Below, piece by piece: positions 43,745 through 58,592 of a stretch of DNA of 64,000 bases. The stretch is from Alphaproteobacteria bacterium. Its GTDB lineage: Bacteria; Pseudomonadota; Alphaproteobacteria; GCA-2731375. The notes under the pieces are model-generated. The model worked only from the letters and a program-made list of their open reading frames with translations, had not been told where the DNA came from and did no database searches. The stretch is from the NCBI GenBank assembly GCA_965232515.1, contig CBDDPY010000002.1, forward strand, positions 1,312,001 to 1,376,000, read 5' to 3'. The number at the start of each line of letters is the position of its first letter. Position 1 is the stretch's first letter. A program made the position numbers and the translations under genes.

Positions 43745-43833
43745 CAGGTTGATGCCGAGTAGGTGACCGGCCAACCTTCCGTCCTTCGCGGGCGACGCGC
43801 TTGCTTCGGCGGCGCAGACAGGCCAAAGGCGGA

Positions 43834-43923
43834 TGGCGGATGGGGTGGGATTCGAACCCACGAGACGCGCTAACGTCTGCCGGTTTTCAAGACCGGTGCC
43901 TTAAACCGCTCGGCCACCCATCC
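43834..43923 (-). tRNA. tRNA-Ser(TGA), 90 nt, encoded CCA
   Basis: GGATGGG...CCGGT-CT-TGA-AA-ACCGG anticodon arm, long variable arm, GGTTCGAATCC T-arm, CCCATCC-G-CCA end. Confidence 0.96.
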
Positions 43924-43925
43924 GC
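43883..43925. repeat. att core, left copy (within the intact tRNA)
   Basis: GTTTTCAAGACCGGTGCCTTAAACCGCTCGGCCACCCATCCGC. Confidence 0.95.
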
Positions 43926-43988
43926 AATAATGATTTCAATCACTTAACAAAATTGTCGGGGCCGCGATACACCGCAAGAGCCCCGACT

Positions 43989-44007
43989 TGCAACCCAATT
44001 GCAACCC
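43989..44007. repeat. Probable integrase arm-type sites (TGCAACCC x2)
   Basis: TGCAACCC at 43989 and 44000; the same tandem pair recurs at 58270 and 58282 near the other att. Confidence 0.7.
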
Positions 44008-44017
44008 GACCGGCCGG

Positions 44018-45169
44018 TCAGCGTTCTACCATTGGTCTCAATATCGCGTCTATCCGGTTGGCCGCTTCTTCCTGCATTCCCGGCAGCACATGCGAATAGG
44101 TGTCGAGCGTGATCGAGACCGACGCATGGCCGGCGCGCTCACTCGCCACCTTCGGGTGCACGCCTTCAAGCAGCAGGTGCGAGATGTGCGTATGCCGGAG
44201 ATCGTGAAACCGGACGGTCGGGACATCGATGCCGGCGATGCGGCGGGCAAACTCGCGGGTGAGGGAGCGCGGCTGGACTGGCGCGCCGTCATAGCGGCAG
44301 ATAACCAACCCCTCGTCGTCGCGCCCCATGCCTTGGGCAAGCCGGAGCTCGGCCTGCTCGCGCCGATGGCGCCGCAGGGCATCGACCGCGACCGCAGGCA
44401 ATGAGATCGTCCGGCGCGAGCGTGCCGTCTTCGGCGGCTGGAACTGCACGCCCTTGGCTGTCTGCTCCAAGGTCTGGGTTACCGAGATGGACGCGCCGTC
44501 GAGATCGACATCGCGCCAGCGCAGACCAAGTATCTCGCCGCGGCGCATACCTGTGGTGACGGCCAGCAGGACCGGCATGTAAAGCTTGGTGCCGCCTATC
44601 GCGTCGAGCAGGACGCCAGTTTCCTTCGGGGTCAGGATCCGCATTTCCTTCCGCACCGGCCGCGGCGGCTCGACATCCTTGGCCGGGTTCCTGGCGATCA
44701 TCTGCCAGCGCACGGCCTGCTTTAGCGCCTGGCTGAGTATGCGGTGGTGGTGCTTCACCGACTGGGCGGAAAGACCTCCCTTGCCATCACGGCGGCCCGA
44801 TTCGAGCGCCTTTGACCATGCGGTGCTGATATGGACCGGCTGCAGCTTGCTGAGAACGTGCGTGCCCAGCGCCGGCACCAGATGATGGTGCACGATGTCG
44901 GCGTAGCGCTCGAACGTCTTCGGTCGAACGCTCGGCTTCACGGTGTCAAGCCACTGCTGCAGGAACTCGGCAACCGTGGTGCGGCTCGGCTCGACATACT
45001 CATTCGCATCCAGCGCGGCCAGCAGGCGGTTGAGTTCCCGCTGAGCATCGCGCTTGCCGCCGCGGACAGTGTGCCATTTGGTGCGGCGCTTCCCGGTCTC
45101 AGGGTCGCGCCCGATATCAATCTTTATCGCCCATGATTCCTTACCGCGCTTGCGGATATGACCTTTCAT
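44018..45169 (-). CDS. int: Tyrosine integrase
   Basis: Arm-binding N-terminus MKGHIRKRG..W; TGMRRGE, KT, FHDLRHT, GH, TYSH catalytic set; adjacent to att. Confidence 0.96.
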   Translation of the reverse strand: MKGHIRKRGKESWAIKIDIGRDPETGKRRTKWHTVRGGKRDAQRELNRLLAALDANEYVEPSRTTVAEFLQQWLDTVKPSVRPKTFERYADIVHHHLVPALGTHVLSKLQPVHISTAWSKALESGRRDGKGGLSAQSVKHHHRILSQALKQAVRWQMIARNPAKDVEPPRPVRKEMRILTPKETGVLLDAIGGTKLYMPVLLAVTTGMRRGEILGLRWRDVDLDGASISVTQTLEQTAKGVQFQPPKTARSRRTISLPAVAVDALRRHRREQAELRLAQGMGRDDEGLVICRYDGAPVQPRSLTREFARRIAGIDVPTVRFHDLRHTHISHLLLEGVHPKVASERAGHASVSITLDTYSHVLPGMQEEAANRIDAILRPMVER

Positions 45170-45717
45170 TTCAGCCTCCCGATCAGATCGCCCAGCCATT
45201 CCCGGATGCTGGGGAACATCTTCAACTGTTTTGAGTATTGAACGCCCTTCTCCGGAAGCGGCGTCTCATAGGTCATTTTCAACTGATCGATGATCCCGAG
45301 AGCGGTGGCCTCCGCCAATTGCTCGGGCTTAGGTGCCCAGCTTAGATGGGCCGGCGCCTTGGTCTTGCCCGCGGGTCGGAAGGCCAGCAACAGCTTTGCA
45401 ATCGCCTGGGCAGTGACCTCGGTGGTGTAAGCGTCGCTCGCCCAGTGCCGCCGCGTGATCATCTCGACCGAGTCAAAGACCTCGTTGAACAGCCGCGCAA
45501 ACGCATAGCGCTCGAGGCTATCGAACCGCTCCCGGATTTGCTTTTCATCGTCGAATGACCCGCGCAGCCGCGCCTCGACCTCCTGGCTAAGTGACATGTT
45601 GCTCGCCGCCCGGGCGTCCTCCAACGCCTGCCGCAAGTCGGCTGTAATGCGCGTGGTGAGCACGGCCCGCTTGTCCTCATAAGGCCCGCTTGGTTTGCGT
45701 CCGATCTTCCTTGGCAT
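45166..45717 (-). CDS. Arc/TraY-like ribbon-helix-helix regulator
   Basis: LTTRITADLRQALEDARAASNMSLSQEVEARL has an RHH pattern; ATGA-coupled to int, divergent from xis. Confidence 0.7.
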   Translation of the reverse strand: MPRKIGRKPSGPYEDKRAVLTTRITADLRQALEDARAASNMSLSQEVEARLRGSFDDEKQIRERFDSLERYAFARLFNEVFDSVEMITRRHWASDAYTTEVTAQAIAKLLLAFRPAGKTKAPAHLSWAPKPEQLAEATALGIIDQLKMTYETPLPEKGVQYSKQLKMFPSIREWLGDLIGRLK

Positions 45718-45898
45718 CGTCTCGTCCTGCTTAATTTGTCTTCACTATTTTTCACTCTGATGCGTTTTGATGTGGTGCGCAAGCACAAAAAGGGCTATAG
45801 CGGCTAGAGGCGAAACAAAACGAGACCGGCCGAGGCCACAGAGGGGGCCGTAGTCCTAGGGCTCGACCAACTGCGAAGCGCAAAGGAAAGGAAACATC

Positions 45899-46093
45899 AT
45901 GCTGGAAAACCCGAAGACCATCAGCGTCCCCGAGGCCGGCTGGCGCTATTTCGGTCTCAGCAAGAATGCGTCCTATGAGGCCGCCAGGCGCGGCGATCTT
46001 CCCGTCATCCGCATCGGTCGCATCCTGCGCGTCCCGGTGGCCGCGATGGACCGAATGCTTGAGCAGGCCGGCCAAAACGAACGCGCTGCCTGA
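45899..46093 (+). CDS. Excisionase-like HTH protein
   Basis: TISVPEA...GLSKN..YEAARRGDLP.IRIGR..RVP; AAGGA RBS. Confidence 0.85.
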   Translation: MLENPKTISVPEAGWRYFGLSKNASYEAARRGDLPVIRIGRILRVPVAAMDRMLEQAGQNERAA

Positions 46094-46133
46094 CGCGACG
46101 AGTAGAAAGAGGACCGAGCGCTAGCCGCGAGCC

Positions 46134-46310
46134 ATGACCGCAAGGCTCACTATCGATGCTGAGCGAGAACGCCGGCTGTGCGACGGCGAAAGATCGCCAG
46201 ACCGCGCAGGCGGTACGACGGACATGGCAGCAGATGCGGCCATGAACACGTTTGAGAGGATCGGCGAGATTGTCGACCGAATCGTAAAGCGGATTTGGAT
46301 CGATGATTGA
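46134..46310 (+). CDS. Small hypothetical protein (58 aa, below the track cutoff)
   Basis: Open frame ending MNTFERIGEIVDRIVKRIWIDD, overlapping the next start; alternative start 46242. Confidence 0.4.
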   Translation: MTARLTIDAERERRLCDGERSPDRAGGTTDMAADAAMNTFERIGEIVDRIVKRIWIDD

Positions 46311-46866
46311 ACTCGACTTCGACCCCCGAGAGACCTTCTACGCCTGCGGGCGCGATGTCCGACAGAGCCACATTGATCGGATCTGCCGGCACGTCACACC
46401 GCGCGCATTGCTCGGCGGCGGCGGCTTCGGTGTTGCCCGCATCCAGTTCGACGGTGACAGGTTCGATTTCGACGCCGCCGGCTTCGAAGCGTTCATTCTG
46501 GCCGCAAGAGAGTCACGGTGGACCGATCAGCTCGGAACCATAACCCCCATTATCGATCTCGTTGCCTGGCTGCCCGACCGCCCGCAGGTGTTCGGCGTGC
46601 TGGAGGGCCGCGCCTGGGCACTCGGGGAGCCGGCTCTATCGCCGAACCGAATGACCGCAGTCCCGGTCGTGCGAACACCGCTCGCCTGGCTGCAGCACGG
46701 CGGCGACGCGCTGCTGATCCTCGATCGCAAGCGGGCTTGGCTAGAACTGATGCACGGGCCGGCCCTGATCGCCGAAGACGTGCAGCATGGCCGAGAGCTG
46801 CGAGAGATCGTCAACCCGCCGAAATGGACGGGCGAAATCATGTTGCGGGAGAGGGCGGCAGCATGA
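46303..46866 (+). CDS. Hypothetical replication-module protein
   Basis: 187 aa with IIDLVAW and RTPLAWL motifs; ATGA-coupled to the helicase. Confidence 0.7.
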   Translation: MIELDFDPRETFYACGRDVRQSHIDRICRHVTPRALLGGGGFGVARIQFDGDRFDFDAAGFEAFILAARESRWTDQLGTITPIIDLVAWLPDRPQVFGVLEGRAWALGEPALSPNRMTAVPVVRTPLAWLQHGGDALLILDRKRAWLELMHGPALIAEDVQHGRELREIVNPPKWTGEIMLRERAAA

Positions 46867-48005
46867 GCGACGACGGGTTGATCCGACTGGAGGACGCCGA
46901 ACACCGCGCCCGCGGCGGCGATCCCACGCCGATCATCGACGAACTCGACCCTGTAAGGCTGCACGGCAAGCCGATCCCGCCGCGCCGCTGGTTGGTGCCC
47001 GGCCTGATCCCGTGGAAATCCGTCACGTTGCTCGGCGGCGATGGTGGGTTGGGAAAGTCGCTGCTAGCAATGCAGCTCCAGGCCGCGGCCGCGATCGGGC
47101 AAGACTGGATCGGGTTCGAAACCCAGCCGGTCAAGTCATACGGCATCTACTGCGAGGACGACGCCGACGAGCTGCACCGCCGGCTTGCCGACATTGCACG
47201 GCATCACGGCGTCGAGCTCGGCGACCTGGCCGACATGCTGATGGCGCCGAGGGTCGGACACAACAGTGTTTTGGCGTCGACCGGCTACGACCGCATCTTC
47301 CGCGAGCTGCCGCTATTCCAGGCTGTCAAAGCGAAGTGCCGCGAGCATGGCGCCCAATTACTCATCATCGACACCGTGGCCGACACGTTCGGCGGAAACG
47401 AGAACTTCCGCGGCGAGGTGCGCACCTTCATCAACCTGCTGCGGCAGATCGCAATCGAGATCGACGGCGCCGTTGTCTTAACCGCACATCCGTCGAAAGA
47501 CGGCCTGTCGACCGGCAGCGGTATTTCGGGGTCGACCGCCTGGAACAACAGCGTTCGGTCTCGCGTCTACCTGACCCGGCCCAACACCGACGACGGCGAG
47601 GAGGACCGATCGGACGAACGGGTGCTGAAGACGATGAAAGCCAATTACGGCGGCCTGCATGACGATATCCGGCTCGTCTGGCGGGATGGCGTTTTCGTCC
47701 GCATCGAGGAGCCGAGCGGCACCATTGGTGCCATCGAGCGACGGTCAGCGGAAGGTGCGTTTCTGGAGGGTCTGGACGCGCTGCAGCGCCAGGGCCGAGC
47801 GGTTAGCGAGTCCCGCAATGCCGGCAACTTCGCGCCGAAGGTAATCGCCGGCATGAAGGTCGGGAAGCGGCACGGCCGGGGCAAGTTGGCCAAGGCCATG
47901 GAGCGGCTTTTCGACGAAGGAAAGATCAAGGTCGAGACGTACGGACGCACCGGCGATCGGCACAAGCGCATCGTCATCGTCGGCGAGGAGGGGCACGAAA
48001 AATGA
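46863..48005 (+). CDS. AAA_25 / RepA-type SF4 helicase
   Basis: RRWLVPGLIP, Walker A GDGGLGKS, Walker B LLIIDT, GGNEN, AHPSK, SGSTAW, KANY; start ATG 46863. Confidence 0.92.
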   Translation: MSDDGLIRLEDAEHRARGGDPTPIIDELDPVRLHGKPIPPRRWLVPGLIPWKSVTLLGGDGGLGKSLLAMQLQAAAAIGQDWIGFETQPVKSYGIYCEDDADELHRRLADIARHHGVELGDLADMLMAPRVGHNSVLASTGYDRIFRELPLFQAVKAKCREHGAQLLIIDTVADTFGGNENFRGEVRTFINLLRQIAIEIDGAVVLTAHPSKDGLSTGSGISGSTAWNNSVRSRVYLTRPNTDDGEEDRSDERVLKTMKANYGGLHDDIRLVWRDGVFVRIEEPSGTIGAIERRSAEGAFLEGLDALQRQGRAVSESRNAGNFAPKVIAGMKVGKRHGRGKLAKAMERLFDEGKIKVETYGRTGDRHKRIVIVGEEGHEK

Positions 48006-48008
48006 GCT

Positions 48009-48196
48009 GCGTCGGTCCCGTTTCGCCACCTCGTAAGTCATTGATTTTATTCGCGTCGGTGTGTGTTCGACGATTTTGCGTAGGTGTCTGAGAAAATGAA
48101 AGAAAATCAATCACTTAACTCTTGCGTCGGTTCTGCGTCGGTGTGTGCCTACCCCCATAGGGGGGTAGGGCAGGGCCCCCGCTCGTCGGGGGAGCC
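48009..48196. other. Putative replication origin: GCGTCGGT iterons, two inverted IHF-consensus sites, GC-rich hairpins
   Basis: GCGTCGGT at 48009, 48053, 48124, 48135 (GCGTAGGT at 48078); TAAGTCATTGATT at 48034 and AATCAATCACTTA at 48105. Confidence 0.65.
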
Positions 48197-48243
48197 CACT
48201 GCCCCAGTTCCGTCACTCCCCTTGGAAACCCGGAGGAACCGAA

Positions 48244-48588
48244 ATGCTTGATGACATCACCTGCGCCGAGTTCGGCCAGCGCGTGGTCGACGAACTCGCG
48301 CGAACCTGCCCGCATCTGCAGCCTTTCCTCGTCGAGACCGCCCGGTTCGGCGCGGTATGCACATTCGCTCGCGAGAAGAAGTTGGGCGGCGACAAGCCGG
48401 CCTGGCAGATCCTCGAGTCGGCGCTTGCTGACATCTTTCACGTGGCGCGCCGGATAGGCACCGGCGGCGATGACATGACCTGGACCGTGGTTTCGGACAA
48501 GGCCGCGCTTCGCGAGGCGCTGACCGCCGTTTTGCAGCCCGAGCCGGCGCCCGAGCCCGAAGAACCGAACATCCTTATGGCCGGTTAG
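48244..48588 (+). CDS. Hypothetical protein
   Basis: GGAGG RBS; first gene of the coupled late-like operon. Confidence 0.65.
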   Translation: MLDDITCAEFGQRVVDELARTCPHLQPFLVETARFGAVCTFAREKKLGGDKPAWQILESALADIFHVARRIGTGGDDMTWTVVSDKAALREALTAVLQPEPAPEPEEPNILMAG

Positions 48589-48631
48589 GACGGCGAAACC
48601 GGCGTCTGTCTGCACAGTGGAGACCGCGCAA

Positions 48632-48868
48632 GTGAGCGAAAAGACAAAGGAAACCGGGAAACGCCCCCCTCGTGTCGGCCGTCTTGACACCGTTGGCGGC
48701 GTCGTCGCGGAGCTGGGCAAGATCTATCGAGCGGCCCGCCGCGGCGATATCGACACCCAGGATGTGACCCGGCTCGCCTATGTGCTGTCGCAAATCCGCG
48801 CGGCCATCGAAAGCAGCGAAATCGAGCGCCGGCTTGACGAGCTTGAACGCAAGGCAGGAACGCTATGA
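48632..48868 (+). CDS. Small helical protein, possible small-terminase/packaging-type factor
   Basis: G.I....A..L pattern and terminal EIERRLDELE coiled coil; function inferred only. Confidence 0.55.
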   Translation: MSEKTKETGKRPPRVGRLDTVGGVVAELGKIYRAARRGDIDTQDVTRLAYVLSQIRAAIESSEIERRLDELERKAGTL

Positions 48869-49179
48869 GCAAGCGCCTCCGCGCCCGGTTGGAACGCCTC
48901 GAAACCGCGAAGGCAGATGCCGAGGCGTTCTGCAACACCATCGTCGTTCTGCCCGGAGAGACGCACGACCAGGCGCTCGGTCGCCTCGGCTTCGAGCCTG
49001 GCCCAGTCGACATGACCATGTTCGTGCAGCGGTTCGCCGAAGACGCGCAGCCAGAACCGGTAAAGCGGACACCGCTCGTCGGCAGACCAGCCGGGCCGCT
49101 CCGGGTTGTTATGGCCGACGACTGGAGCCGGGAAGACTGGGACCTGACGGAATACGCCGACTGCGAGGGGCGGTCATGA
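48865..49179 (+). CDS. Hypothetical protein (RLERLE...PGET)
   Basis: ATGA overlaps on both sides. Confidence 0.7.
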   Translation: MSKRLRARLERLETAKADAEAFCNTIVVLPGETHDQALGRLGFEPGPVDMTMFVQRFAEDAQPEPVKRTPLVGRPAGPLRVVMADDWSREDWDLTEYADCEGRS

Positions 49180-49364
49180 GGCGGAGCATCACACATCGCC
49201 TCGACCGCGTGGCCCGCCGCGTCGACCCGTCGCCGGGGATTGTATTTGTCATTATCAAGCCCGGAGAGACGCGGGAATCCGTCATGGCCGAAAGGGGCCT
49301 GACCGGGCGCAAGTTCCGAGCCCTCTACATCATCGACCTGACGAAAGGGGAACACGATGAATGA
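49176..49364 (+). CDS. Small hypothetical protein, apparent paralogue of the preceding gene
   Basis: MRRSITHRLDRV...IIKPGET; ATGA-coupled. Confidence 0.6.
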   Translation: MRRSITHRLDRVARRVDPSPGIVFVIIKPGETRESVMAERGLTGRKFRALYIIDLTKGEHDE

Positions 49365-50013
49365 ACCTGTAAACGAGGCCGAACCGTCGGCAGCCGAGAA
49401 GGTGGCCGCGACGCTCGCCGGCCTCGAAACGCAACTCGCCGACGCGACGGCCGAGCGTTCCGAGCTGATCGACCGACAGGGCCGATTGGCGATGCGCATG
49501 CACAGCGGCGACAGCGCAGCCGGCGAAGCCTATCGCGGCGTGGTGGGCGAGCGGCGCCGGCTTGATGAGACGGTCGAAAGCCTGACGCTCGCTGTGCAGG
49601 CGGCCCGCGCCGAGCATGAGCAGGCTGTCAGCGACGATATGGCGGCCGCCGAGGCAAACCGGGCCGAGCGTATCGACGCCCTACTCGACCTGCGCAATGC
49701 GGCGCTTGCCGACGCCGAGCGAGCCTTGCGCGAGGCGCTCGACCGGCTGGACCGAGCCGGCGAGCTGGCGGCCGAGATCGTCGAGGTTCGCGGCGCTGTC
49801 AAGAACCTGCCCCGTTTCAGCAACACGCTGCACCCCGAAAACACACGCGACCGGCTGTCGTGTTCGGCCAACGCGTTCGGGCTCGGGCGGTGGCTCAATC
49901 TCGATCAGGAGCGGATGCCGTTCATCAGGGACGACACGCCATCGTCGCTGGTCGACGTCGAGGCACCCGTACAGGACCGATATCGACTGACCGAGAAGGA
50001 GCACGCGGCATGA
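49357..50013 (+). CDS. Coiled-coil protein
   Basis: Ala/Glu/Arg-rich heptads over about 150 aa; AAGGGG RBS. Confidence 0.75.
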   Translation: MNEPVNEAEPSAAEKVAATLAGLETQLADATAERSELIDRQGRLAMRMHSGDSAAGEAYRGVVGERRRLDETVESLTLAVQAARAEHEQAVSDDMAAAEANRAERIDALLDLRNAALADAERALREALDRLDRAGELAAEIVEVRGAVKNLPRFSNTLHPENTRDRLSCSANAFGLGRWLNLDQERMPFIRDDTPSSLVDVEAPVQDRYRLTEKEHAA

Positions 50014-50363
50014 ACGCGCAAGAGGCACAACGGAAGATCCGCGCCATCCTGGCCGACAAGGATCACGCCTATCACGATTCTCGTAGTCCACAGCATCAAG
50101 ACGCTGTGGACGTGATGCAGGGGCTTTACGAGATCGTCTATCCGGTCAGCGAGCCCGAGCCCGGCGGGCAGCGGTTCGCCGAGCTGGCGCAATCCCAGAT
50201 CCGGAAGAAGGAAAGCGATCCCGACTTCATGGCGGCGTACCGCGAACCCGGCCACGCCGATCACGCGCAGGCGGTCGAGACCATGAACCGGCTTTACCGC
50301 GAGGCGCACCCGGAGCCCTCGATCGAGGAAGGGTTCGCAGACGCAGGAGGGCCCGAGCAATGA
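50010..50363 (+). CDS. Protein with two tandem copies of a podovirus scaffold C-terminal-like motif
   Basis: Internal repeat AQ..IR....D...AY......H..AV..M..LY....P; AAGGAG RBS and ATGA overlap at 50010. Confidence 0.7.
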   Translation: MNAQEAQRKIRAILADKDHAYHDSRSPQHQDAVDVMQGLYEIVYPVSEPEPGGQRFAELAQSQIRKKESDPDFMAAYREPGHADHAQAVETMNRLYREAHPEPSIEEGFADAGGPEQ

Positions 50364-50803
50364 CCATGAGCGGCGTTGCAACCGGCGGCCTGGGCAGCAT
50401 CGGAGACCAGCAGCACAAGCCCGATGACTTCCAGGCACTCTTGGAGACGTACGGCACCGCCTCGGCGGCCGGCGACTACAAGCACTTCAGCGAAGCGGTT
50501 GGGGACAGGCTGGTTGAAGCCGGCGTGCTGGACGAAAATAGCCCTTGGCTGACGACGTTCGTCTTGCAGGCGCAGGCGGCGGCAAAGCTCCGGGAAGTCG
50601 TCGACGGACGCGGCGAAGTGGTGCGGGATTTCGGCGGGCTCGCCATGTTCCTAAGTGATCGCGCGATGATCGGTGGCGACGAAGGGCGTCGGCTACTGCT
50701 CGAGTACGCAGACTTCCGCCAGGCGTTCGCAAAGGCATGCCGGGACGAGCTGGAAGCCCGAAGCGGACAACCAGGCTACGAAGCACCGGACGACGCCGCA
50801 TGA
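50360..50803 (+). CDS. Hypothetical protein
   Basis: ATGA-coupled on both sides; AGGAGG RBS. Confidence 0.7.
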   Translation: MTMSGVATGGLGSIGDQQHKPDDFQALLETYGTASAAGDYKHFSEAVGDRLVEAGVLDENSPWLTTFVLQAQAAAKLREVVDGRGEVVRDFGGLAMFLSDRAMIGGDEGRRLLLEYADFRQAFAKACRDELEARSGQPGYEAPDDAA

Positions 50804-51312
50804 CCACTGCGCCCGCTACAGTCGATTATCGCGCGCGCTCGCGGCGGCCCGTCATCCGGGAAGCGACGGCCGCCGACGTGCCCGAGCTGGTGCGCCTGGG
50901 CGCCGAGATGCACGCGGAGTCGCCGGCCTATTCCTGGCTGCCGTTCGACGACGTGCTGGCGCTCGCGAACGGGCATCGCTGGGTGATGAGCGACGAACAC
51001 TTGGTGCTGACGGCCGACGATGACGGCGACCTGTTCGGCGTGCTGGTCGGGCACCTCGGACGGTTCTTCTTCTCGCGCCGGCTGATCGCCTCCGACATCG
51101 TGCTCTATGTCCGCGCCGAACGCCGCGGCGGCCTGGCGGCGAGCCGGATGGTCAAGCGCTTCCGGGACTGGGCGACAGAGCGCGGCGCCGCCGAGATGTG
51201 TATCGGGGTAAGCGCCGGCATCGATAGCGAGCGTATCGGCCGCTGGCTGGAAGCGATGGGAATGGACATCGGCGCGGTCACGTACAAGAGGCGGCTCGAT
51301 GTCACTCCATGA
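50800..51312 (+). CDS. Phage-type GNAT acetyltransferase
   Basis: IREATAADVP, LYVRAERRGG..A..M, start ATG 50800. Confidence 0.82.
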   Translation: MTTAPATVDYRARSRRPVIREATAADVPELVRLGAEMHAESPAYSWLPFDDVLALANGHRWVMSDEHLVLTADDDGDLFGVLVGHLGRFFFSRRLIASDIVLYVRAERRGGLAASRMVKRFRDWATERGAAEMCIGVSAGIDSERIGRWLEAMGMDIGAVTYKRRLDVTP

Positions 51313-52018
51313 ACTCGGACCACCGTTCGGCGATGATGGCGCGTGCGATCGGGATTGCGGTGGCGCGGTCCATGCCCGGCCGCAGTCGGTCGTCGTAGAG
51401 CGTGGCGAGGAGCAGCCTGTCAGCCGGGGTGAGCTCGAAAACCGTATCGGCTTCGCAGATGACGGACGGACGGTAGTGGCAGGCGTCGGCCGGCAGGCCC
51501 ATCGCCTGATAGATCTCCTCAAGGATGCAGTCGCGCTGGTCTCGTTCCGAGATGTCGGCGCCGATCAGCACAAGCGCGCCGATCACCTCGCCGTTGCCGC
51601 GTTGCGTGGCGATGTGCACCAGGCAAAGCGATGCGTTGATTTCATCGCCGGCACTTACCCATGTTGGCTGCACCTGACGAAATTGCCGGCGCGGCATAAC
51701 GGCGATTTGGAAATTGACCTGATCGTCGCGGACGGCGCTCCGGTTCCAGCCGAGACCGGTTGCTACGGCGATGTCATCCATGCTGGCTTTGAGGAAGGCG
51801 TCATGCAGGGCAAGGCTCGTTCGAGCGGCCTCACTGTCGACCCATCCAACGACTGGTTCGTTGGGCCAGCGCCGCATGGTGTCTTGGCCAACGCCGAAAT
51901 CATTACCGAAAGCGGCCACTTCGAATTGCCGGGCCACGTTCTCGGGTGTCGGCGTAATCGGCTCCGGGCCAGTCGACACGCAACCGGCGAGCAAGAGAGC
52001 GGCGAGCAGCACACGCAT
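51302..52018 (-). CDS. DUF2927-like lipoprotein
   Basis: Lipobox LLAGC; CILEEIYQAMGLPAD..S; D..LL..LYD.RLRPGM. Confidence 0.75.
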   Translation of the reverse strand: MRVLLAALLLAGCVSTGPEPITPTPENVARQFEVAAFGNDFGVGQDTMRRWPNEPVVGWVDSEAARTSLALHDAFLKASMDDIAVATGLGWNRSAVRDDQVNFQIAVMPRRQFRQVQPTWVSAGDEINASLCLVHIATQRGNGEVIGALVLIGADISERDQRDCILEEIYQAMGLPADACHYRPSVICEADTVFELTPADRLLLATLYDDRLRPGMDRATAIPIARAIIAERWSEFME

Positions 52019-52056
52019 GCCGCAACCATATAGGCGCGAACAAAGGAGACGCAATC

Positions 52057-52890
52057 ATGTGTGGTACAGGCGGTGAAGGCGACAACGGCGGCGATGCCGA
52101 AGTTGACATTGAAGCGCAGGCATTCGGCGTTGGCCCGGTCGGGCAGACGGGGCCGGCACCGGGACCAGGGAATGAGCCGGGCGGGCCGTCGGACAATCCG
52201 GGTCCGGGTCAGTTTGGCGGCATCGGCGCGCCGGGCACGTCCGGGAATTTCGGCGGTGTCGGCGGTCCTGCCGATCTTGAAGCCGATCAAGCCGGGCGGA
52301 ACCCTGGCGCGCTGTCGCCGGGTAAGGGACCAGGGCCGAGCAGCAACACAGTGGGCAAGGTCATCAAAAATGTCTTGCCGTTCGGTGTGCCGCCGGCCGC
52401 TCTCGATCCGTTGGCCGAGAAGGGCGGCCGCGCAATAACAGGCCTTATCGAGGGCATAACCGGAGCGAAGGGCCAAGCCCCCGGCCAAGGCCCCAGCACA
52501 GGCAGCGAAGGCGGTCCCGCGAGCGATTTCGGCGAGAGCGGTAACTTCGGCGGTGTTGGCTTTGGTGGCGGAAACACTGGCGGCGACGGTGCGGTTGATA
52601 ATGGCGCTTCCCGACCGCTGGCAACGTCCGTGCAGACAGCCGAGCGTCAAATCGCGAACCAGCTCGGGCGGCCGGCGCCGCCGGCACGCGCCCCTGCGCT
52701 TGACCTGCCGAGCTCGAACATTGACGAGATCCGTGCCGAGCTGGAAGCAGAGAAAGACGCCCGCCGACGCCGGCGGCGCGCGACACGCGATTCAACGATC
52801 GTGACCGGTCCGCTCGGCGTGCCTGGGCAACCGGAGCTGCTGTTCACTCGCGCGATCCCCGGCGCGTCGCGTCGCCTTTTGGGGCAGTGA
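52057..52890 (+). CDS. Gly/Pro-rich protein with MC start and podovirus virion-protein-like C-terminus
   Basis: AAGGAG RBS; ends RRRRRATRDSTIVTGPLGV...RRLLGQ. Confidence 0.7.
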   Translation: MCGTGGEGDNGGDAEVDIEAQAFGVGPVGQTGPAPGPGNEPGGPSDNPGPGQFGGIGAPGTSGNFGGVGGPADLEADQAGRNPGALSPGKGPGPSSNTVGKVIKNVLPFGVPPAALDPLAEKGGRAITGLIEGITGAKGQAPGQGPSTGSEGGPASDFGESGNFGGVGFGGGNTGGDGAVDNGASRPLATSVQTAERQIANQLGRPAPPARAPALDLPSSNIDEIRAELEAEKDARRRRRRATRDSTIVTGPLGVPGQPELLFTRAIPGASRRLLGQ

Positions 52891-52892
52891 CG

Positions 52893-53198
52893 ATGGCCGA
52901 CGACGACAAGGTGGTCGAACTCAGCGACTCGCGCGGCGATCAGATCCAGGCCGATCAGCAATTCCTGCTCGACGAGCTACGCAAGTCTGCAGCAGCGGCG
53001 GCGGACATCCCCGATCTGGCCGGCTTCGCCCTGATCGCCTGGGACGGCGAGGCGAAGCCCTACACGCTGGTGAACCTCGGCGCGACCGTTAATCCGACCG
53101 TGCCGCGGCAGCTAATCCCGGCCTATGTGCAGATCGTCATGCAGCAGTGGCACGCGCTGTGCTGCGAGCAGGAGCGGTTAGATGGCAGTGAACTGTAA
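52893..53198 (+). CDS. Hypothetical protein
   Basis: Immediately follows the previous stop; LAGFALIAWD motif; alternative GTG start 52887. Confidence 0.65.
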   Translation: MADDDKVVELSDSRGDQIQADQQFLLDELRKSAAAAADIPDLAGFALIAWDGEAKPYTLVNLGATVNPTVPRQLIPAYVQIVMQQWHALCCEQERLDGSEL

Positions 53199-53247
53199 TT
53201 GACGCCGCTACAAACTTCCTAGTCGGTCATCGACGTCCAGTTGAGCT

Positions 53248-53592
53248 TCATTCAATACGCCAAGAATGGTCTGGATCAGGCACAAAAGTCACTCCAGATC
53301 CACTACCAACTCCGATTCCCCCCGTTTCATCCGGAATCAAGGATCCCTCATGTTTGGAATAACGGATCATCACCAGCCAACCGTTTGGCACTGAAACCCT
53401 CCAAAGCTCGTAGCACGTCGGTTGAGGTCGAATCTCGCTACCACAATCTCTCTCAATAACCTCCCATAATAGGCGGTACTGACCTGCAGACTGACCTGCA
53501 GCCGGCGCAGATATCAGCAGCAAACTCGCTGAGATAGCTGCGATGGCAATGGGAATCCCTAAAACTAGCGAGGCACGCATCGGATTGCTCAC
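53248..53592 (-). CDS. Small secreted hypothetical protein (lower-GC cargo)
   Basis: Signal peptide; R..VPNGWLV and FVPDP.H.W motifs; GTGA-coupled to the upstream Cys-rich gene. Confidence 0.65.
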   Translation of the reverse strand: MSNPMRASLVLGIPIAIAAISASLLLISAPAAGQSAGQYRLLWEVIERDCGSEIRPQPTCYELWRVSVPNGWLVMIRYSKHEGSLIPDETGGIGVGSGSGVTFVPDPDHSWRIE

Positions 53593-53909
53593 TCACATCC
53601 GTCAAAGGGATCGCAAAAACAGCCGATCGGGCAATCCCCAGAGTGCTGACAGTACTGACCAACGCAACTCGTTGCCACAAGCTCATCAAATGACCGCAGC
53701 TCGTCCGGGCACCACGTAGCACGAATACAATTTGCCGAGCGCGCATGGGCCTCAGCAAACGAAAGTCCCTGTACATGGATTTTCTTTCGTGCGAGCGGTC
53801 CAGATTCTGGGTCTGCCACAAGGTATATCCCCGTGCCACTCATCTCGTTTTTGTTCTGGTTCGGCTGAACATACTTTGCAACTTCAGGATGAAGTTCGAA
53901 GGTCGGCAT
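53589..53909 (-). CDS. Small protein with a six-Cys C-terminal peptide
   Basis: GGGAGG RBS, ATG 53909; ends CVGQYCQHSGDCPIGCFCDPFDGCE. Confidence 0.65.
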   Translation of the reverse strand: MPTFELHPEVAKYVQPNQNKNEMSGTGIYLVADPESGPLARKKIHVQGLSFAEAHARSANCIRATWCPDELRSFDELVATSCVGQYCQHSGDCPIGCFCDPFDGCE

Positions 53910-54336
53910 AGCTACCTCCCGGCCAAATTGTCGAACACCATTTGATACTAGCAACCTTAGATTTTATAACAAACACCTGTAGCTATGAAACGGCAATTTG
54001 CCGGTAGACAGGTTTCCCCAATGCGCGAGCCTGCATCGGCGTCACCATGAACCCGTCGTGCTAGAGCACCTAATTTCGACCTACGTAAGGGACGTCATGC
54101 AGACATGGCACGGGCCGGCGTGCGGCCAGGAGCGGCTCGACGCCGGCAAGTCAGGGGGGAGAGAAGTAGCCCAGGCAGTCCCTTGCCGCTGTGGCGCGAA
54201 ACCTCGGCCAGAGAGGGGTGCTCTGTGGGGCATCCTTGGGCATGGAGAAAGAAAACAGGGAGGGCACCCACCTTGTTTTCGAAACTGCCGTCGATAATGA
54301 ACAGTGACGACCACAGAGCTTGCCAAGTGGGCGATG

Positions 54337-54546
54337 TTAGAGGCGCATGAACTGAACGAACGCCTGAATGGCGAACCCCGATACTACCAGCAGGAATCCA
54401 TAGAATTGGCGGTCGAACCGCTGTCCGCCACCGCTCCAGAACGGCCGGCGGTCCGGCGCCCTCAGTAGATGGTAGCCGAGAACTGCAAAGCCCACGCCGT
54501 CGCAGAGCAGCCCGACGAGATTGATGAACCCCAAACTCACAATCAT
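54337..54546 (-). CDS. Small two-TM membrane protein
   Basis: Two hydrophobic segments; AAGGGG RBS. Confidence 0.55.
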   Translation of the reverse strand: MIVSLGFINLVGLLCDGVGFAVLGYHLLRAPDRRPFWSGGGQRFDRQFYGFLLVVSGFAIQAFVQFMRL

Positions 54547-54577
54547 TGTCGCCCCCTTCTGACGTTGGCGGAGATTG

Positions 54578-55105
54578 TTATGTCGATGGACTGTCTTCAG
54601 ATGTCACGCCTTCCACATCTGACATTTCGATCGGCGGTATTCGCAGGTACAGCGGCCGCCCAAACGTGTGGTAGATCACGCCATAGACACGCTCGGTATG
54701 GGACCATTCAATCAAGTCTTGTGTCTGCTGGCACTGCGACATGAATTTCTCGCCAACCTTAAGAACGTAAGGGAGTGGATAGACGTCGCCTGGATGCATC
54801 ACGACGGCTGCCTTAGTCGATTTGTTGAGAAGCCAACTCCACCAACCGTCATAACCGAGCAGACCGATGGTGGTTATGGTCGTTGGGGTGGAGCCCGTGT
54901 TGGCAACGTCAAAGATCACGTATTTAGTGTCTCTTTCGAAGCCTCGGCCCCCGGCGAAAATCATGTTCGGCCGTGCCCATCCCTGTAACCGCGGTCCCCT
55001 CGACCACCATTTGATGGCATCCCAAACCAACACGAACGTCGCAACAATCGCCGCATAGATCGCGACAGGGTCGATTTCGTCGGCCAGATCAAACGTAAGC
55101 TCCAT
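54578..55105 (-). CDS. Membrane-anchored hypothetical protein
   Basis: N-terminal TM (VAIYAAIVAT..LVW), then beta-rich domain with V.N.G..PTTI. Confidence 0.7.
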   Translation of the reverse strand: MELTFDLADEIDPVAIYAAIVATFVLVWDAIKWWSRGPRLQGWARPNMIFAGGRGFERDTKYVIFDVANTGSTPTTITTIGLLGYDGWWSWLLNKSTKAAVVMHPGDVYPLPYVLKVGEKFMSQCQQTQDLIEWSHTERVYGVIYHTFGRPLYLRIPPIEMSDVEGVTSEDSPST

Positions 55106-55174
55106 GCTGGCACCCGCCTTTTCGATTTACGTTCGGCGCAATCTACAACCGATAATACAACCTAGCGGGCATAG

Positions 55175-55198
55175 AAAAGGCCCCGCCGAAGCGGGGCC
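55175..55198 (-). terminator. Rho-independent terminator after the recombinase
   Basis: Minus strand GGCCCCGC-TTCG-GCGGGGCC-TTTT. Confidence 0.85.
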
Positions 55199-55240
55199 AG
55201 TAGAGTCTTGGTGCGGCGAGGAAAGCGCCGCGGGGCCAGC

Positions 55241-56203
55241 TTACACGCGGTTCTGCGCTGTCGCCAGCTTGGCCGCCGCACCGCGGCGAACCATCAGGTT
55301 CTCGGTGTAGCGCGACACCATCAGCGCCGTTTTCCAGCCGCCGGCCTGCATGATGCCCGGCAGCTCGATGCCAGCCGCGACCATGTCCTGAGCGCAGCCG
55401 ACGCGCGTTGAATGCCCGGAGATGTCCGAGACCAGCGAATCGGCAACGCCGGCAGTGGCGGCCATGCGCTTGTAGATCCGGGCCACGTCGCCGCCCCGGA
55501 GACGGCTGCAGACGGCGCCGCCGAGCCGGACGGACCGGAACAACGCGCCATGCGCGATGTCGGCCGCCCGCAGCCACGCCGAGAGGTGCGCCACAGTGTC
55601 AGCCGCCAGGTACCGCATGGAGCCTTCGCCGCTCTGGTCGGTTTTGCTGCGCCGAATGAGCGCCGTTCCGTCGCCGGCCTCGGTCACATCGATGTCGGCC
55701 ACGTCCAGCGCCACGAGCTCGCTGCGCCGCGCCAGCGTGTCATAGGCGACGGACAGCAGCGCACGGTTGCGAAGGCCGATCGGCGTGTCGGGACAGGCCG
55801 CGAGCATGCGGTCGACCAGCGGGCGTGTCAGCCCGGCCGCCTGCCGCTGCCGCCGGCCTTTCTCGCGGTGCATGCGCTTCATGGCGAGCTTGACGGACAG
55901 GTCATCGGTTGGCGTCGGCACGCCTGCCGCACGGTGGAACATGGCGATGCTCGACACGTACCGCTGCACCGTCGCCGGCGCCCGGGCCTCGGACATCGCG
56001 TCGATGAACGCCACCACGGCCGCAGGGGTCGCGGGGAGGGGCGTGAACCCCTCCCGTACGCACCAGGCCGTCCAGATGGCCGTATCGCTCTTGAGCGCCC
56101 GCTCCGTCGCTTCGGCATAGGCGCCGCGGGCCTGCTCGGCGTGCCGCTCGAGATTGGCCAGCACATCGGCCGGCAGCGGCGTGACGGTGGTGAGCGCGTT
56201 CAT
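55241..56203 (-). CDS. Cre-like tyrosine recombinase (resolvase type)
   Basis: SAM-like N-domain; RNRALL..YDTLARRSEL, RRSKTDQ.G.G, SGHSTRVG.AQD, GGWK, RY; no arm-binding domain; GGAGG RBS before 56203. Confidence 0.92.
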   Translation of the reverse strand: MNALTTVTPLPADVLANLERHAEQARGAYAEATERALKSDTAIWTAWCVREGFTPLPATPAAVVAFIDAMSEARAPATVQRYVSSIAMFHRAAGVPTPTDDLSVKLAMKRMHREKGRRQRQAAGLTRPLVDRMLAACPDTPIGLRNRALLSVAYDTLARRSELVALDVADIDVTEAGDGTALIRRSKTDQSGEGSMRYLAADTVAHLSAWLRAADIAHGALFRSVRLGGAVCSRLRGGDVARIYKRMAATAGVADSLVSDISGHSTRVGCAQDMVAAGIELPGIMQAGGWKTALMVSRYTENLMVRRGAAAKLATAQNRV

Positions 56204-56517
56204 GACGAGCCTCCAACACTCAGGCCGACACTCCACAAAAGGGGCAACGCCCTTGTCTCGGGTCCAGGCTGCCGGCCCTCGTCAACAGCGATGCGCCAGT
56301 ACCGCGCGTCGAAGTCGAACGGCGGCCGCAGCGGATCGGCGTTGAGCCGCCACGCCAACAATGACGCCTCCTCCTCAAGCCAAGCCCAGTATTTGCGCAA
56401 GGCCTCCTCGGACGGGCGTTCGATGGCGGCGACGATTTGCGGCTTGATGATGGCCGCCGTCGATGCGATGGCGCCCATACCTTTGACGACAGTGCGACGG
56501 GAAACGTTCGTTTTCAT
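56200..56517 (-). CDS. Small phage-type protein with twin-arginine-like N-terminus
   Basis: MKTNVSRRTVVKG; GGAGG RBS; ATGA-coupled to the recombinase. Confidence 0.65.
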   Translation of the reverse strand: MKTNVSRRTVVKGMGAIASTAAIIKPQIVAAIERPSEEALRKYWAWLEEEASLLAWRLNADPLRPPFDFDARYWRIAVDEGRQPGPETRALPLLWSVGLSVGGSS

Positions 56518-56528
56518 GGCCGCCTCCC

Positions 56529-57167
56529 TCACACCCAAGCCTTGCCGCAGGCCAGATACTCGACCGTCTGATTGCTGGCGATTTGCGCCCGGCACCCTTC
56601 CGCCGACTGTTGGGTAAACTCGTTGTCGGCAAGATCGTTTTCCCGGTCGTGGTTGTCTTCGGCCGGGTCGTCGTCTTCCAGCGGGTCGTCATCCTCGTTG
56701 TCGTGGTCAGGCTCCATGTCGGCGGCTTCGCTGCCGAACTCGGCCAGCCAGGCCAGCAACGGCGGCGTGACGGGAACGAGCAGGTAATCCAGATCGCCGT
56801 CGACGGGGATAAGGTCAGCGTCGGCGACCAGCGCGGCAACGACCAGCGTCGCCTTGTGCGCCATCTGCCGCCGCAAGATCGCCGCTTCACCGGTCATAGC
56901 GATGGCGATGTTGGTGGCGGCTGTCCGCCGGCCAGTCGGGGCGCACCGGTGGTACTTCAGCAGTCGCGCCAGCTTCAGCAGCACATGCCGTGTGAAGTCG
57001 AGCCCGATGTCGTCGTGCACGTCGAGCAGATCGGCCGGCACGTCCGGCAGAAGGTGCGGCAGGTGTTCTGCCCGGTCATAGGACCTGGCCGATTCGCGGA
57101 CGAAGTGCTTGCGCGACGCAATGCCGATCGCGCGGGCTTGCGCGGCAGCCATTTCGATGGGTGTCAT
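56529..57167 (-). CDS. Hypothetical protein with acidic repeat tail; first gene after the C4 leader
   Basis: Tail EPDHDNEDDDPLEDDDPAEDNHDRENDLAD; RBS overlaps a C4 target box. Confidence 0.65.
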   Translation of the reverse strand: MTPIEMAAAQARAIGIASRKHFVRESARSYDRAEHLPHLLPDVPADLLDVHDDIGLDFTRHVLLKLARLLKYHRCAPTGRRTAATNIAIAMTGEAAILRRQMAHKATLVVAALVADADLIPVDGDLDYLLVPVTPPLLAWLAEFGSEAADMEPDHDNEDDDPLEDDDPAEDNHDRENDLADNEFTQQSAEGCRAQIASNQTVEYLACGKAWV

Positions 57168-57219
57168 GATGATTTCCTACGTTTGGCTTTCTAGGCCATG
57201 CCAGCGGTCAGCGCTGGCG

Positions 57220-57293
57220 CCGGGAGCTAGAAACCGGACGTAGGACCGGCGGGCTTATTCCCCCGAAGGGTCTTGTATTCACCGCACTCCCGA
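57220..57293 (-). ncRNA. C4-like antisense RNA (P1 C4 / P4 CI type)
   Basis: Closing stem CGGGAG/CTCCCG, internal GAATACAAGACCC-TTCG-GGGGAATAAG, antisense boxes CCTACGT and GTTTCTAG complementary to flanking targets. Confidence 0.8.
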
Positions 57294-57370
57294 CAGAAGC
57301 CGGGCATAAATATACCGCCAAGACCGGTGGCGGGAACCGCCTACGTTAGGTGTTTCTAGCACCGTCGATA

Positions 57371-57399
57371 ATGATAGATATGGGGCACCTAGTTTGCAA
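57371..57399 (-). promoter_or_regulatory. Sigma70-type promoter of the C4 operon
   Basis: Minus strand TTGCAA-17 bp-TATCAT just upstream of the first target boxes. Confidence 0.7.
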
Positions 57400-57473
57400 C
57401 CCTCGGCTAGTACGCAATTGATCGGAAGATTGGATCGCGGCGAGACGCAACGCTCAAACCTCAGCAATCGGCC

Positions 57474-58226
57474 ATGATGACAGTCAACAACTTCTCAGAA
57501 CTGATCGACGGAATTTCGACGATCATCGATGCGCGGCCAAGTGAGACGTGGTGGTGGCGGGGTCACGCCAGGAAGGACTGGAGCTTGCGCCCGAGCGTTC
57601 ATCGAGGCGACCTCGGGCATCGGTATGAGCAGAACTCGTTGGCGACCTTTGTTCGGTACAGCTCTGCACGGCATGCGAACTGCCCTGCGCGCAATGACCT
57701 GCCATCGTGGGCATTCCTGATGCAGCACTACGGGGTGCCCACGCGCCTGTTGGACTGGTCGGAGTCCCCACTCATTGCCGTTTATTTTGCTGTCGCCAAC
57801 CAGGCACACGAAGCTGAGGCAGGGGTGTTGTCTGGGCTACTTCCCGGCCCCATGAACCATCATGAAGCCGGCCTAGCCGGAGTGATTGGCATTAACGGGG
57901 AACCAGCTCGTTCATTGTTCTTGGCCATGAGCGATGAACGAATTCATGAAAAGCACCAAGAAATCATCGCGATACAAGCAAACCAAATGGACCCGCGGAT
58001 GCTGGCGCAGCTTTCGCACTTCACGATCCATGGCCGCGCCACACCTATTGAGCAGATCGATGTCGCGGGTCAGGTCCTCTTCCAAATAGAGATAGCGCCG
58101 CAAGCCAAGGCCGGCATTCGTGAGAGGCTGAGGCAGTTCGGAGTGAGGGAAATGAATCTATTTCCGGATCTCGAACACCTCGCTAACGAGATTCGTGAAT
58201 TGCGGTGGAAAGCGCCCGAAAGCTGA
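57474..58226 (+). CDS. FRG-domain protein
   Basis: WWRGH....W.L.PS..R, MQHYGVPTRLLDWSESPLIA.YFA, RM.AQ...FT, LFPDL. Confidence 0.92.
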   Translation: MMTVNNFSELIDGISTIIDARPSETWWWRGHARKDWSLRPSVHRGDLGHRYEQNSLATFVRYSSARHANCPARNDLPSWAFLMQHYGVPTRLLDWSESPLIAVYFAVANQAHEAEAGVLSGLLPGPMNHHEAGLAGVIGINGEPARSLFLAMSDERIHEKHQEIIAIQANQMDPRMLAQLSHFTIHGRATPIEQIDVAGQVLFQIEIAPQAKAGIRERLRQFGVREMNLFPDLEHLANEIRELRWKAPES

Positions 58227-58406
58227 ACGTCCAACTCGGCGCGAACCGTTGCCAAAGAACAGCGCCATCTGCAACCCACATTGCAACCCAACTGCGAAGG
58301 AATTGCCGGGATGACCGGGGACGAAGCGAAACACCGGACGCCACGAAAGGCCCGGATTTCCTAACTCTCAGGGAAGTGAAGGGACAGCGCGGTACGGTTG
58401 TAATCA

Positions 58407-58449
58407 GTTTTCAAGACCGGTGCCTTAAACCGCTCGGCCACCCATCCGC
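58407..58449. repeat. att core, right copy (displaced 5' half of tRNA-Ser)
   Basis: Identical to 43883-43925; covers tRNA position 1 through the anticodon loop. Confidence 0.95.
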
Positions 58450-58592
58450 GTCAGAATCGTGGCGCGATTTCTAGCACCGTCGTGACCACAGCGTCCACGC
58501 CCACACCCCGAGAAAACACGCGCGCGAGCGGTCCGGTTGCTGCTAGCCTTGACGCACAAAACAAATGCCAAATCCGAAACAGGGGGCATGGG

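Follow-up and report, generated by a model that had tools for sequence, protein, structure and literature searches.

We analysed a window of 64,000 nucleotides from an alphaproteobacterial genome (GTDB GCA-2731375; GenBank assembly GCA_965232515.1, contig CBDDPY010000002.1, positions 1,312,001 to 1,376,000 of the forward strand), and positions below count from the first letter of the window unless another contig is named. At 43883-58449 lies a mobile-looking element bounded, as the original prediction from the bare sequence had it, by att sites. They consist of an exact 43-bp direct repeat with 14,524 bp from start to start, and a repeat search of 43500-59000 found this to be the one long exact direct repeat in that range. 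Our best explanation, which we hold with somewhat more belief than doubt, is that the element is an integrative, self-replicating satellite resembling the phage-inducible chromosomal islands (PICIs), and that its helper would be a podovirus of the HTVC010P type, with a PF12236 portal and a PF19821 capsid protein. The genome has a GC content of 65.5% and genes were therefore called from third-position GC (GC3) together with family matches, the open reading frames (ORFs) being scanned with Pfam, PHROGs and NCBIfam. The boundaries and the integration, regulation and replication core are as follows:

43834-43923, minus strand: tRNA-Ser(TGA) gene, called by ARAGORN, the sole tRNA in the 64-kb window.
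43883-43925: attL, one copy of the 43-bp exact direct repeat.
43988-44007, plus strand: two tandem TTGCAACCC repeats, possible arm-type integrase sites.
44018-45199, minus strand: tyrosine integrase of 393 amino acids (Pfam PF00589 1.6e-19 and PF14659; phrog_1 1e-81).
45166-45717, minus strand: probable RHH (Arc/CopG-like) regulator of 183 amino acids (weak match to phrog_228, E 0.0035).
45899-46093, plus strand: HTH_17 excisionase/AlpA-like protein, divergent from the regulator (Pfam PF12728 6.3e-6, just under the Pfam cut-off).
46303-46866, plus strand: o187 (GC3 0.77), ATGA-coupled to the helicase gene, no family match.
46863-48005, plus strand: AAA_25 (RepA/DnaB-like) replicative helicase of 380 amino acids (PF13481 3.2e-32; phrog_906 6e-34).
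48006-48243: iteron-like region of 238 bp, with some five repeats of the GCGTCGGT type and an inverted repeat rich in AT.
58269-58289, plus strand: second pair of repeats, (C/T)TGCAACCC, possible arm-type sites.
58407-58449: attR, identical to attL over all 43 bp, a displaced duplicate of the 5' half of the tRNA.

Family matches and repeats thus bear out the predicted succession of integrase, RHH regulator, divergent HTH_17 protein, AAA_25 helicase and iteron-like region. The RHH assignment is the weak one among these, and the N-terminal strand-helix-helix pattern of this protein was read off the sequence. Judging from its repeats, 48006-48243 is the probable origin of replication; no primase domain was recognised in the replication module.

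After the iterons a plus-strand operon runs in the order o114, o83, o104, o62, o218, o117, o147 and GNAT acetyltransferase, and seven ATGA start/stop overlaps plus one GTGA occur across the element. The ATGA-coupled operon of the original prediction is therefore real, but it is not continuous: the plus-strand ORF at 51299-52033 that had been counted as one of its genes is the antisense of a DUF2927 lipoprotein gene on the minus strand, which interrupts the operon. Its genes and those that follow are:

48244-48588, plus strand: o114, first operon gene (GC3 0.82), no family match.
48617-48868, plus strand: o83, small helical protein with homologues after the helicase gene in other small islands.
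48865-49179, plus strand: o104 (GC3 0.79), starting in an ATGA overlap.
49176-49364, plus strand: o62, a possible small gene with an ATGA overlap on each side, no family match.
49357-50013, plus strand: o218, long helical-hairpin protein with six metagenomic homologues at 58-62% identity.
50010-50363, plus strand: o117, candidate scaffold mimic with two tandem copies of a scaffold C-terminal motif.
50360-50803, plus strand: o147, orphan without a Pfam match.
50800-51312, plus strand: GNAT acetyltransferase of phage type (SP6 gp28-like; phrog_1249 3.4e-27).
51302-52018, minus strand: DUF2927 lipoprotein, host-derived (Pfam 3.3e-31, a chromosomal paralogue, and GC3).
52057-52890, plus strand: o277, Gly-rich homologue of a phage pre-portal protein, with a good ribosome-binding site and a C-terminal motif.
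52887-53198, plus strand: o103 (GC3 0.83), GTGA-coupled to o277.

The products of the genes at 50010, 50800 and 52057 had been thought to resemble podovirus proteins, and for all three a relation to the HTVC010P group was found. For o117 the family concerned is phrog_3742, which includes HTVC010P gp07, a protein coded between the portal and the major capsid protein and named capsid assembly protein or protease in the records. o117 matches positions 235-285 of the 287 in this profile and no others, and does so twice, which corresponds to the last ~45 residues; a full-length match over some 280 residues is absent, so that on sequence grounds o117 shares a domain with phrog_3742 and is not a member of the family. 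With the true start codon the match weakens to E 2.6e-4, and for this reason we built a profile of the scaffold C-terminus ourselves, taking the last 55 residues of each of 10 phage scaffold proteins, and ran it with filters off against the 120,753 six-frame ORFs of the genome. It matched the o117 frame alone (E 2.7e-14; the next ORF at 1.5), with a strong first domain (1.5e-10). Alignment of o117 to the scaffold alignment by hhalign gave a probability of 94.5 and an E-value of 7.9e-8, residues 1-45 corresponding to 248-292 of 293, and the same procedure found no relation to the scaffold for o114, o83, o104, o218, o147, o277, o103 or o187. We had considered o218 as the N-terminal part of a split scaffold and dropped the idea on this result. 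The two halves of o117 align with each other. The first repeat is nearest to the scaffold end of G024, the only other genome of the genus among the 33 genomes of the order (the present one, G000, and 32 others) used in our DNA search, with 19 of 41 residues identical, and then to that of an IMG/VR provirus (17/39).

The AlphaFold model of o117 consists of two helix-loop-helix units with pLDDT 87-92 over residues 1-40. A fold search with this model against the PDB and BFVD returned nothing at E <= 0.001, and a predicted complex of o117 with the G024 capsid protein (L051:757-1626) scored 0.17 (mark 0.32), which counts neither for nor against binding. No phage match was obtained by tblastn against 50,697 phage records, nor a homologue of similar length in a set of 5.8 billion proteins. 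From the sequence comparisons, o117 is verified as the last ~45 residues of an HTVC010P-type scaffold repeated in tandem, and by analogy it is a candidate functional counterpart of CpmB, the protein with which the satellite SaPI1 acts on capsid assembly.

The other two genes link the element to the same phages. With the GNAT protein as query, tblastn matched 199 of the 50,697 phage records, and in 106 of these the match spans 80% or more of the protein. In Rhizobium phage Paso the GNAT gene lies two small genes upstream of the portal, and in pelagiphage Baldr the terminase gene is followed by a small gene, the acetyltransferase, two more small genes and the portal. The host genome has no second GNAT copy at E 1e-5. 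Apart from the GNAT gene in G024, all that the order-wide DNA search turned up in the 32 other genomes were paralogues of DUF2927 and a few matches that were short and weak. The G024 match lies on a contig of 2,091 bp that carries, in this order, a GNAT 53% identical to that of the element, a 260-residue homologue of o277 (32% identity, E 9e-9) and, directly downstream, an open-frame PF12236 head-tail connector/portal (8.4e-56). This portal fragment matches 191 phage records, HTVC010P-type pelagiphages foremost and also Bordetella, Vibrio and Caulobacter phages, and on a second G024 contig lie the terminal part of a phrog_3742 protein, one small gene and a capsid gene of family PF19821. Together the two contigs point to an HTVC010P-type podovirus associated with the genus.

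The C-terminus of o277 matches phrog_831 (E 5.2e-6), the family of HTVC010P gp03 and gp04, which are two small genes between terminase and portal. The C-termini of gp03 and gp04 have a basic run, STILTGPLGV and then LLG; o277 ends in RRRRRRATRDSTIVTGPLGV...RRLLGQ, that is, in a basic run and a STIVTGPLGV...LLGQ motif that follow the C-terminal pattern of phrog_831. When the C-termini of eight phage pre-portal proteins were made into a profile, the o277 frame came out first among the 120,753 ORFs (E 9.2e-4; next 0.83), and the same profile also matches the G024 homologue. Both proteins carry a Gly-rich N-terminal extension, of about 200 residues in o277. By tblastn against the phage records o277 gave no match, either whole or with its C-terminal 84 residues even at E 10, and no shorter homologue of this C-terminus was found in the 5.8-billion-protein set. 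We also observed that o277 and its G024 homologue (L011:588) both start with MCG.(G/A)GEG, that the pre-portal proteins of Caulobacter phage BL94 and of pelagiphages start with MC and MG respectively, and that in several of these phages GNAT lies just upstream of the pre-portal gene. Our guess is that GNAT acylates the N-terminus of the pre-portal protein.

Turning to what the element lacks, scans with Pfam, PHROGs and NCBIfam placed none of its ORFs in a family of capsid, portal, terminase, tail, lysis or relaxase proteins, and no coupling protein or type IV secretion family turned up among the ORFs scanned. The absence of capsid, portal, large terminase, tail, lysis and conjugation genes had been predicted, as had that of Sid/Psu, Cpm or capsid-forming PICI (cf-PICI) head modules, and no such family was found: Sid, Psu, Delta and Epsilon were missing from all element ORFs by PHROGs and Pfam, and TerS, Ppi and Cpm families likewise were not found in them. 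The predicted size of about a third of a podovirus genome also holds, the 14,524 bp being 0.32-0.43 of the genomes of related phages (33.6-46.1 kb). A T=4 shell holds ~0.43 of what a T=7 shell does, by our own arithmetic and with both T numbers assumed. An element that carries three genes from the head region of a short-tailed phage found in the same genus, and no shell genes, probably hijacks that phage to spread. The satellite lifestyle is what we infer from this combination.

The right part of the element carries further genes. Cargo had been predicted there, and it is present; a second tyrosine recombinase and a defence candidate had gone unnoticed:

53199-55240: low-GC cargo of small orphan ORFs, including a degenerate copy of the o103 3' end.
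55241-56236, minus strand: second tyrosine recombinase of 331 amino acids (PF00589 2.1e-20).
56529-57167, minus strand: c212, with two partial paralogues elsewhere in the genome.
57474-58226, plus strand: FRG-domain protein (PF08867 6e-23), a PADLOC candidate defence gene, PDC-S15 (PDLC04938 5.3e-41).

The right third of the element is lower in GC. The degenerate copy (54049-54147) covers the last 33 codons of o103 at 52% identity and lies ~850 bp downstream across the stretch of lowest GC, and it is possibly the scar of a cargo exchange. The N-terminal half of c212 has two chromosomal paralogues, near C2:4256500 and C2:4661500, with no recombinase found beside either. The DUF2927 gene overlaps the GNAT stop by 11 bp and has a paralogue at C2:2061583-2062290 (~75% DNA identity over 254 bp) next to the operon of an ABC transporter. 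In G024 the GNAT and o277-like genes are adjacent with nothing between them, and in the element the DUF2927 gene stands at this place; it looks like a captured host gene, or moron. We further noted that the second tyrosine recombinase has a very high third-position GC of 0.88. Two small contigs of the assembly, C3 (5.5 kb, 45.8% GC) and C4 (10.9 kb, 42.3% GC), have no ORF of 250 residues or more and differ in GC from the chromosome (65.5%); they may be contaminants or foreign replicons. The tmRNA of the genome is permuted, which fits an alphaproteobacterium.

At the left boundary attL lies within the tRNA-Ser(TGA) gene, and covers the tRNA 5' half as far as the anticodon loop. ARAGORN finds in the 7.39-Mb genome no other serine tRNA gene with a TGA anticodon. 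The part usually duplicated by such elements is the 3' half, whereas here it is the 5' half, and the sole tRNA-Ser(TGA) gene must consequently now use a promoter inside the element end (43926-44017). The four exact copies of TTGCAACCC in the window are all inside the element, three of them near the att copies; these three, with one further copy that has a single mismatch, are arranged as one pair 63-82 bp inside attL and another 118-138 bp inside attR, and by their sequence and placement such pairs are possible arm-type integrase sites. An att-like 22-mer at 57319-57340 overlaps a terminator-like hairpin and was taken as chance. The sequencing runs X1-X3 are mixed samples, in which several high-depth contigs have the same tRNA-Ser sequence with other flanks, indicating that other organisms share this tRNA.

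Relatives of the element were sought with its individual genes. Scans of IMG/VR with o277, o147 and o218 found nothing, as did a search with the o218 alignment of GTDB genome contigs and JGI metagenome contigs, and o83 and o103 had no tblastn match in the 50,697 phage records. Residues 33-92 of o147 are weakly like one repeat of a protein with ten PG_binding_1 domains (E 3.9e-8); three further matches fall in unrelated repeat proteins and were discarded, and an o147 search of the Atlas gave no usable match. Homologues of o83 were found in 2 of 400 other genomes sampled from the class and on six GTDB contigs; one of them carries DUF5681. The stretch fetched around the homologue contains a tRNA-Ser gene in six of these eight loci and a scaffold or pre-portal motif in none. 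At least three loci (L028, L061 and L062) share, besides the o83-like gene, a P4-type integrase, a helicase-like protein of ~470 residues and a conserved 269-residue protein, none with a Pfam match where scanned. L028 also has AlpA and a 203-residue protein, of which the first recurs in L061 and the second in L062. Small islands with an o83-like gene lie beside tRNA-Ser genes (CGA, GCT, GGA) in Nitrosomonas, Comamonas, Rhodocyclales and an alphaproteobacterium (L028, L058-L062). The o83-bearing islands may represent an undescribed satellite-like family.

Could the element instead be a rearranged and decaying temperate HTVC010P-type prophage, now immobile, with the three phage-like genes as idle leftovers? 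We regard this as the foremost alternative and as unlikely. It would fit the three genes held in common with the head region of such phages, the fact that IMG/VR labels two related contigs provirus, at least one of them (L031) with an integrase, the scars in the right half (the inserted lipoprotein gene, the degenerate o103 duplicate and the second recombinase), and the single-copy depth with no excised form seen. Gene order speaks against it. In the phages the order is terminase, pre-portal/GNAT, portal, small gene, scaffold, small gene, capsid; in the element it is scaffold mimic, o147, GNAT, lipoprotein, pre-portal protein, o103, and a single deletion cannot produce the second from the first. 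The original prediction had named homologous loci as the place where a deletion remnant would betray itself, and the related phage loci have this different order. In the G024 assembly, which is 81% complete so that absence is not proven, nothing matched the helicase, o218, o147 or o103, and together with the order this argues against a simple deletion remnant. o117 is not a truncated scaffold: it is a duplication of the last ~45 residues with an ATG of its own, coupled to o218. The core ORFs are all open and ATGA-coupled, the att copies are identical over 43 bp, and the o218 homologues keep their length at 58-62% identity. The different order, the duplicated end-piece with its own coupled start and the G024 absences lead us to favour a dedicated element over a decayed prophage.

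A second alternative, which we consider somewhat less probable still, is a defence island that only interferes, in which o117 would be a decoy poisoning the capsid assembly of HTVC010P-type phages and the element would not be packaged. The doubled scaffold C-terminal motif of o117, the PDC-S15 candidate and the failure to find a small terminase or pac site are all compatible with it. A passive island could, however, do without the complete set of integration, excision and replication functions, origin included, that the element keeps; homologues of virion-associated pre-portal proteins make sense for particles that the element itself would use, and known satellites both interfere and spread. 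An integrative mobilisable element or integrated plasmid spreading by conjugation, with the phage-like genes as incidental cargo, is highly improbable, since, although the integrase, the AAA_25 (RSF1010 RepA-like) helicase and the iterons would equally make a plasmid-like replication set, the scanned ORFs gave no relaxase (sought by Pfam and PHROGs as a sign against a satellite), coupling protein or type IV secretion family, a search of 72,556 plasmid records with 46303-53198 (blastn) found no DNA match, and the phage-derived genes lie within the coupled operon and outside the cargo region.

The satellite reading has several points to answer. The second repeat of o117 taken alone matches the scaffold profile weakly (domain E 1.9), and although in other phages this motif is the part of the scaffold that contacts the capsid protein, its doing so in the HTVC010P group is an extrapolation from P22 and 80alpha. 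Neither a small terminase nor a packaging signal could be recognised in the element. The genome contains no HTVC010P-type terminase, portal, scaffold, capsid or tail gene, so that no helper is at hand. The depth of the element contig equals that of its flanks (67 versus 63/65 in X1, 105 versus 113/98 in X2), and neither an attP junction nor an attB contig was seen among the X1 and X2 contigs of this mixed sample; assembled contigs drop rare forms, which makes the evidence from depth and junctions weak. The family is rare, the relatives of o218 numbering six among 5.8 billion proteins, all metagenomic. Finally, the reverse-strand DUF2927 gene splits the operon, and this insertion, the duplicated 3' end of o103 and the second recombinase show that the right half has been rearranged. 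On balance the proposal of a satellite of short-tailed phages gains support from the three podovirus-related genes, the absence of a relaxase family and the gene order of related loci, while its helper, its excision and its packaging were not seen.

If the element is such a satellite, a mechanism can be proposed. Infection by an HTVC010P-type phage would lead the element to excise and to replicate from its own origin. o117, with its two scaffold C-terminal motifs, would bind the helper capsid protein at two sites in competition with the helper scaffold, and o218, a translationally coupled protein whose predicted model is a long helical hairpin (pLDDT >90 over residues 11-130), may assist as a partner. 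Helper assembly would then either be blocked or be redirected to small capsids that fit 14.5 kb, in which the GNAT and o277 of the element would replace the helper versions. The cargo, with the PDC-S15 candidate and the lipoprotein among it, would benefit the host.

The proposed role of o117 has a precedent in SaPI1, whose CpmB shares with the 80alpha scaffold a helix-and-hook at the C-terminus and rivals it for the capsid protein, giving small capsids (PMC5644958). Like SaPI1 and PICIs in general, the element is ~15 kb long, has a terminal integrase with an att site, divergent regulators (the RHH one weak), a replication module in which iterons forming the putative origin adjoin the helicase gene, and no virion or lysis genes. 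A small protein copying the C-terminal end of the scaffold is a further likeness, demonstrated for CpmB (PMC5644958) and for o117 at the level of sequence. The two differ in that the putative helper of our element is a podovirus of the HTVC010P group whereas that of SaPI1 is the siphovirus 80alpha, in that the motif stands twice in tandem at the N-terminal end of o117 and once at the C-terminus of CpmB, and in that no small terminase or Ppi was recognised in the element and o117 has no sequence relation to Cpm proteins. With P4-like satellites, whose helper is the myovirus P2, the element has in common an integrase, an AlpA-type excisionase, helicase-based replication and capsid redirection as a strategy, and the o83-homologue islands L028, L061 and L062 have P4-type integrases, with AlpA in L028 and L061. 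It differs from them in lacking Sid, Psu, Delta and Epsilon, and Sid is an external scaffold, whereas o117 comes from an internal one.

The marine VEIMEs are likewise islands with integrase, AlpA and primase/helicase but no capsid genes, some of them alphaproteobacterial and with helpers not known, and they are described as being packaged as concatemers in full-size capsids, capsid remodelling being thought uncommon (PMC9618062). Our element differs in having a scaffold-derived gene, though some VEIMEs may carry similar genes. HTVC010P-type podoviruses themselves (pelagiphages, Vibrio VP2/phiVC8 and the G024 contigs) share with the element the scaffold C-terminus, the GNAT and the pre-portal protein, and differ from it in possessing terminase, portal, capsid and tail genes, in gene order and in having an unrelated replication module. 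The capsid, portal, protease and head-tail connector genes that cf-PICIs carry were not found in the element. PLEs are characterised by a large serine recombinase, a RepA_N initiator and TcaP, whereas both recombinases of the element are of the tyrosine type. Integrative mobilisable and conjugative elements are set apart by a relaxase, an oriT or both; Pfam and PHROGs found no relaxase family in the element, and an oriT could escape notice in sequence alone. Those satellites that have been characterised depend, to our knowledge, on long-tailed helpers (P2, 80alpha, ICP1, lambdoid phages and Streptomyces siphoviruses), and a literature search found no satellite with an HTVC010P-type or Autographiviridae helper.

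Our work leads us to speculate, more tentatively than for the satellite nature itself, that the element represents the first recognised family of podovirus satellites, in which the bivalent scaffold mimic o117, maybe together with o218, re-sizes or blocks the HTVC010P-type capsid and which brings its own acetyltransferase and pre-portal protein. If our hypothesis were correct the CpmB trick of SaPIs would have been re-invented independently in Alphaproteobacteria, and scaffold mimicry would have a second, independent case in which it hijacks capsid assembly. Phages of the HTVC010P type are highly abundant in water, and a satellite striking at the contact between their scaffold and capsid protein would be a new player in those phage-host systems.

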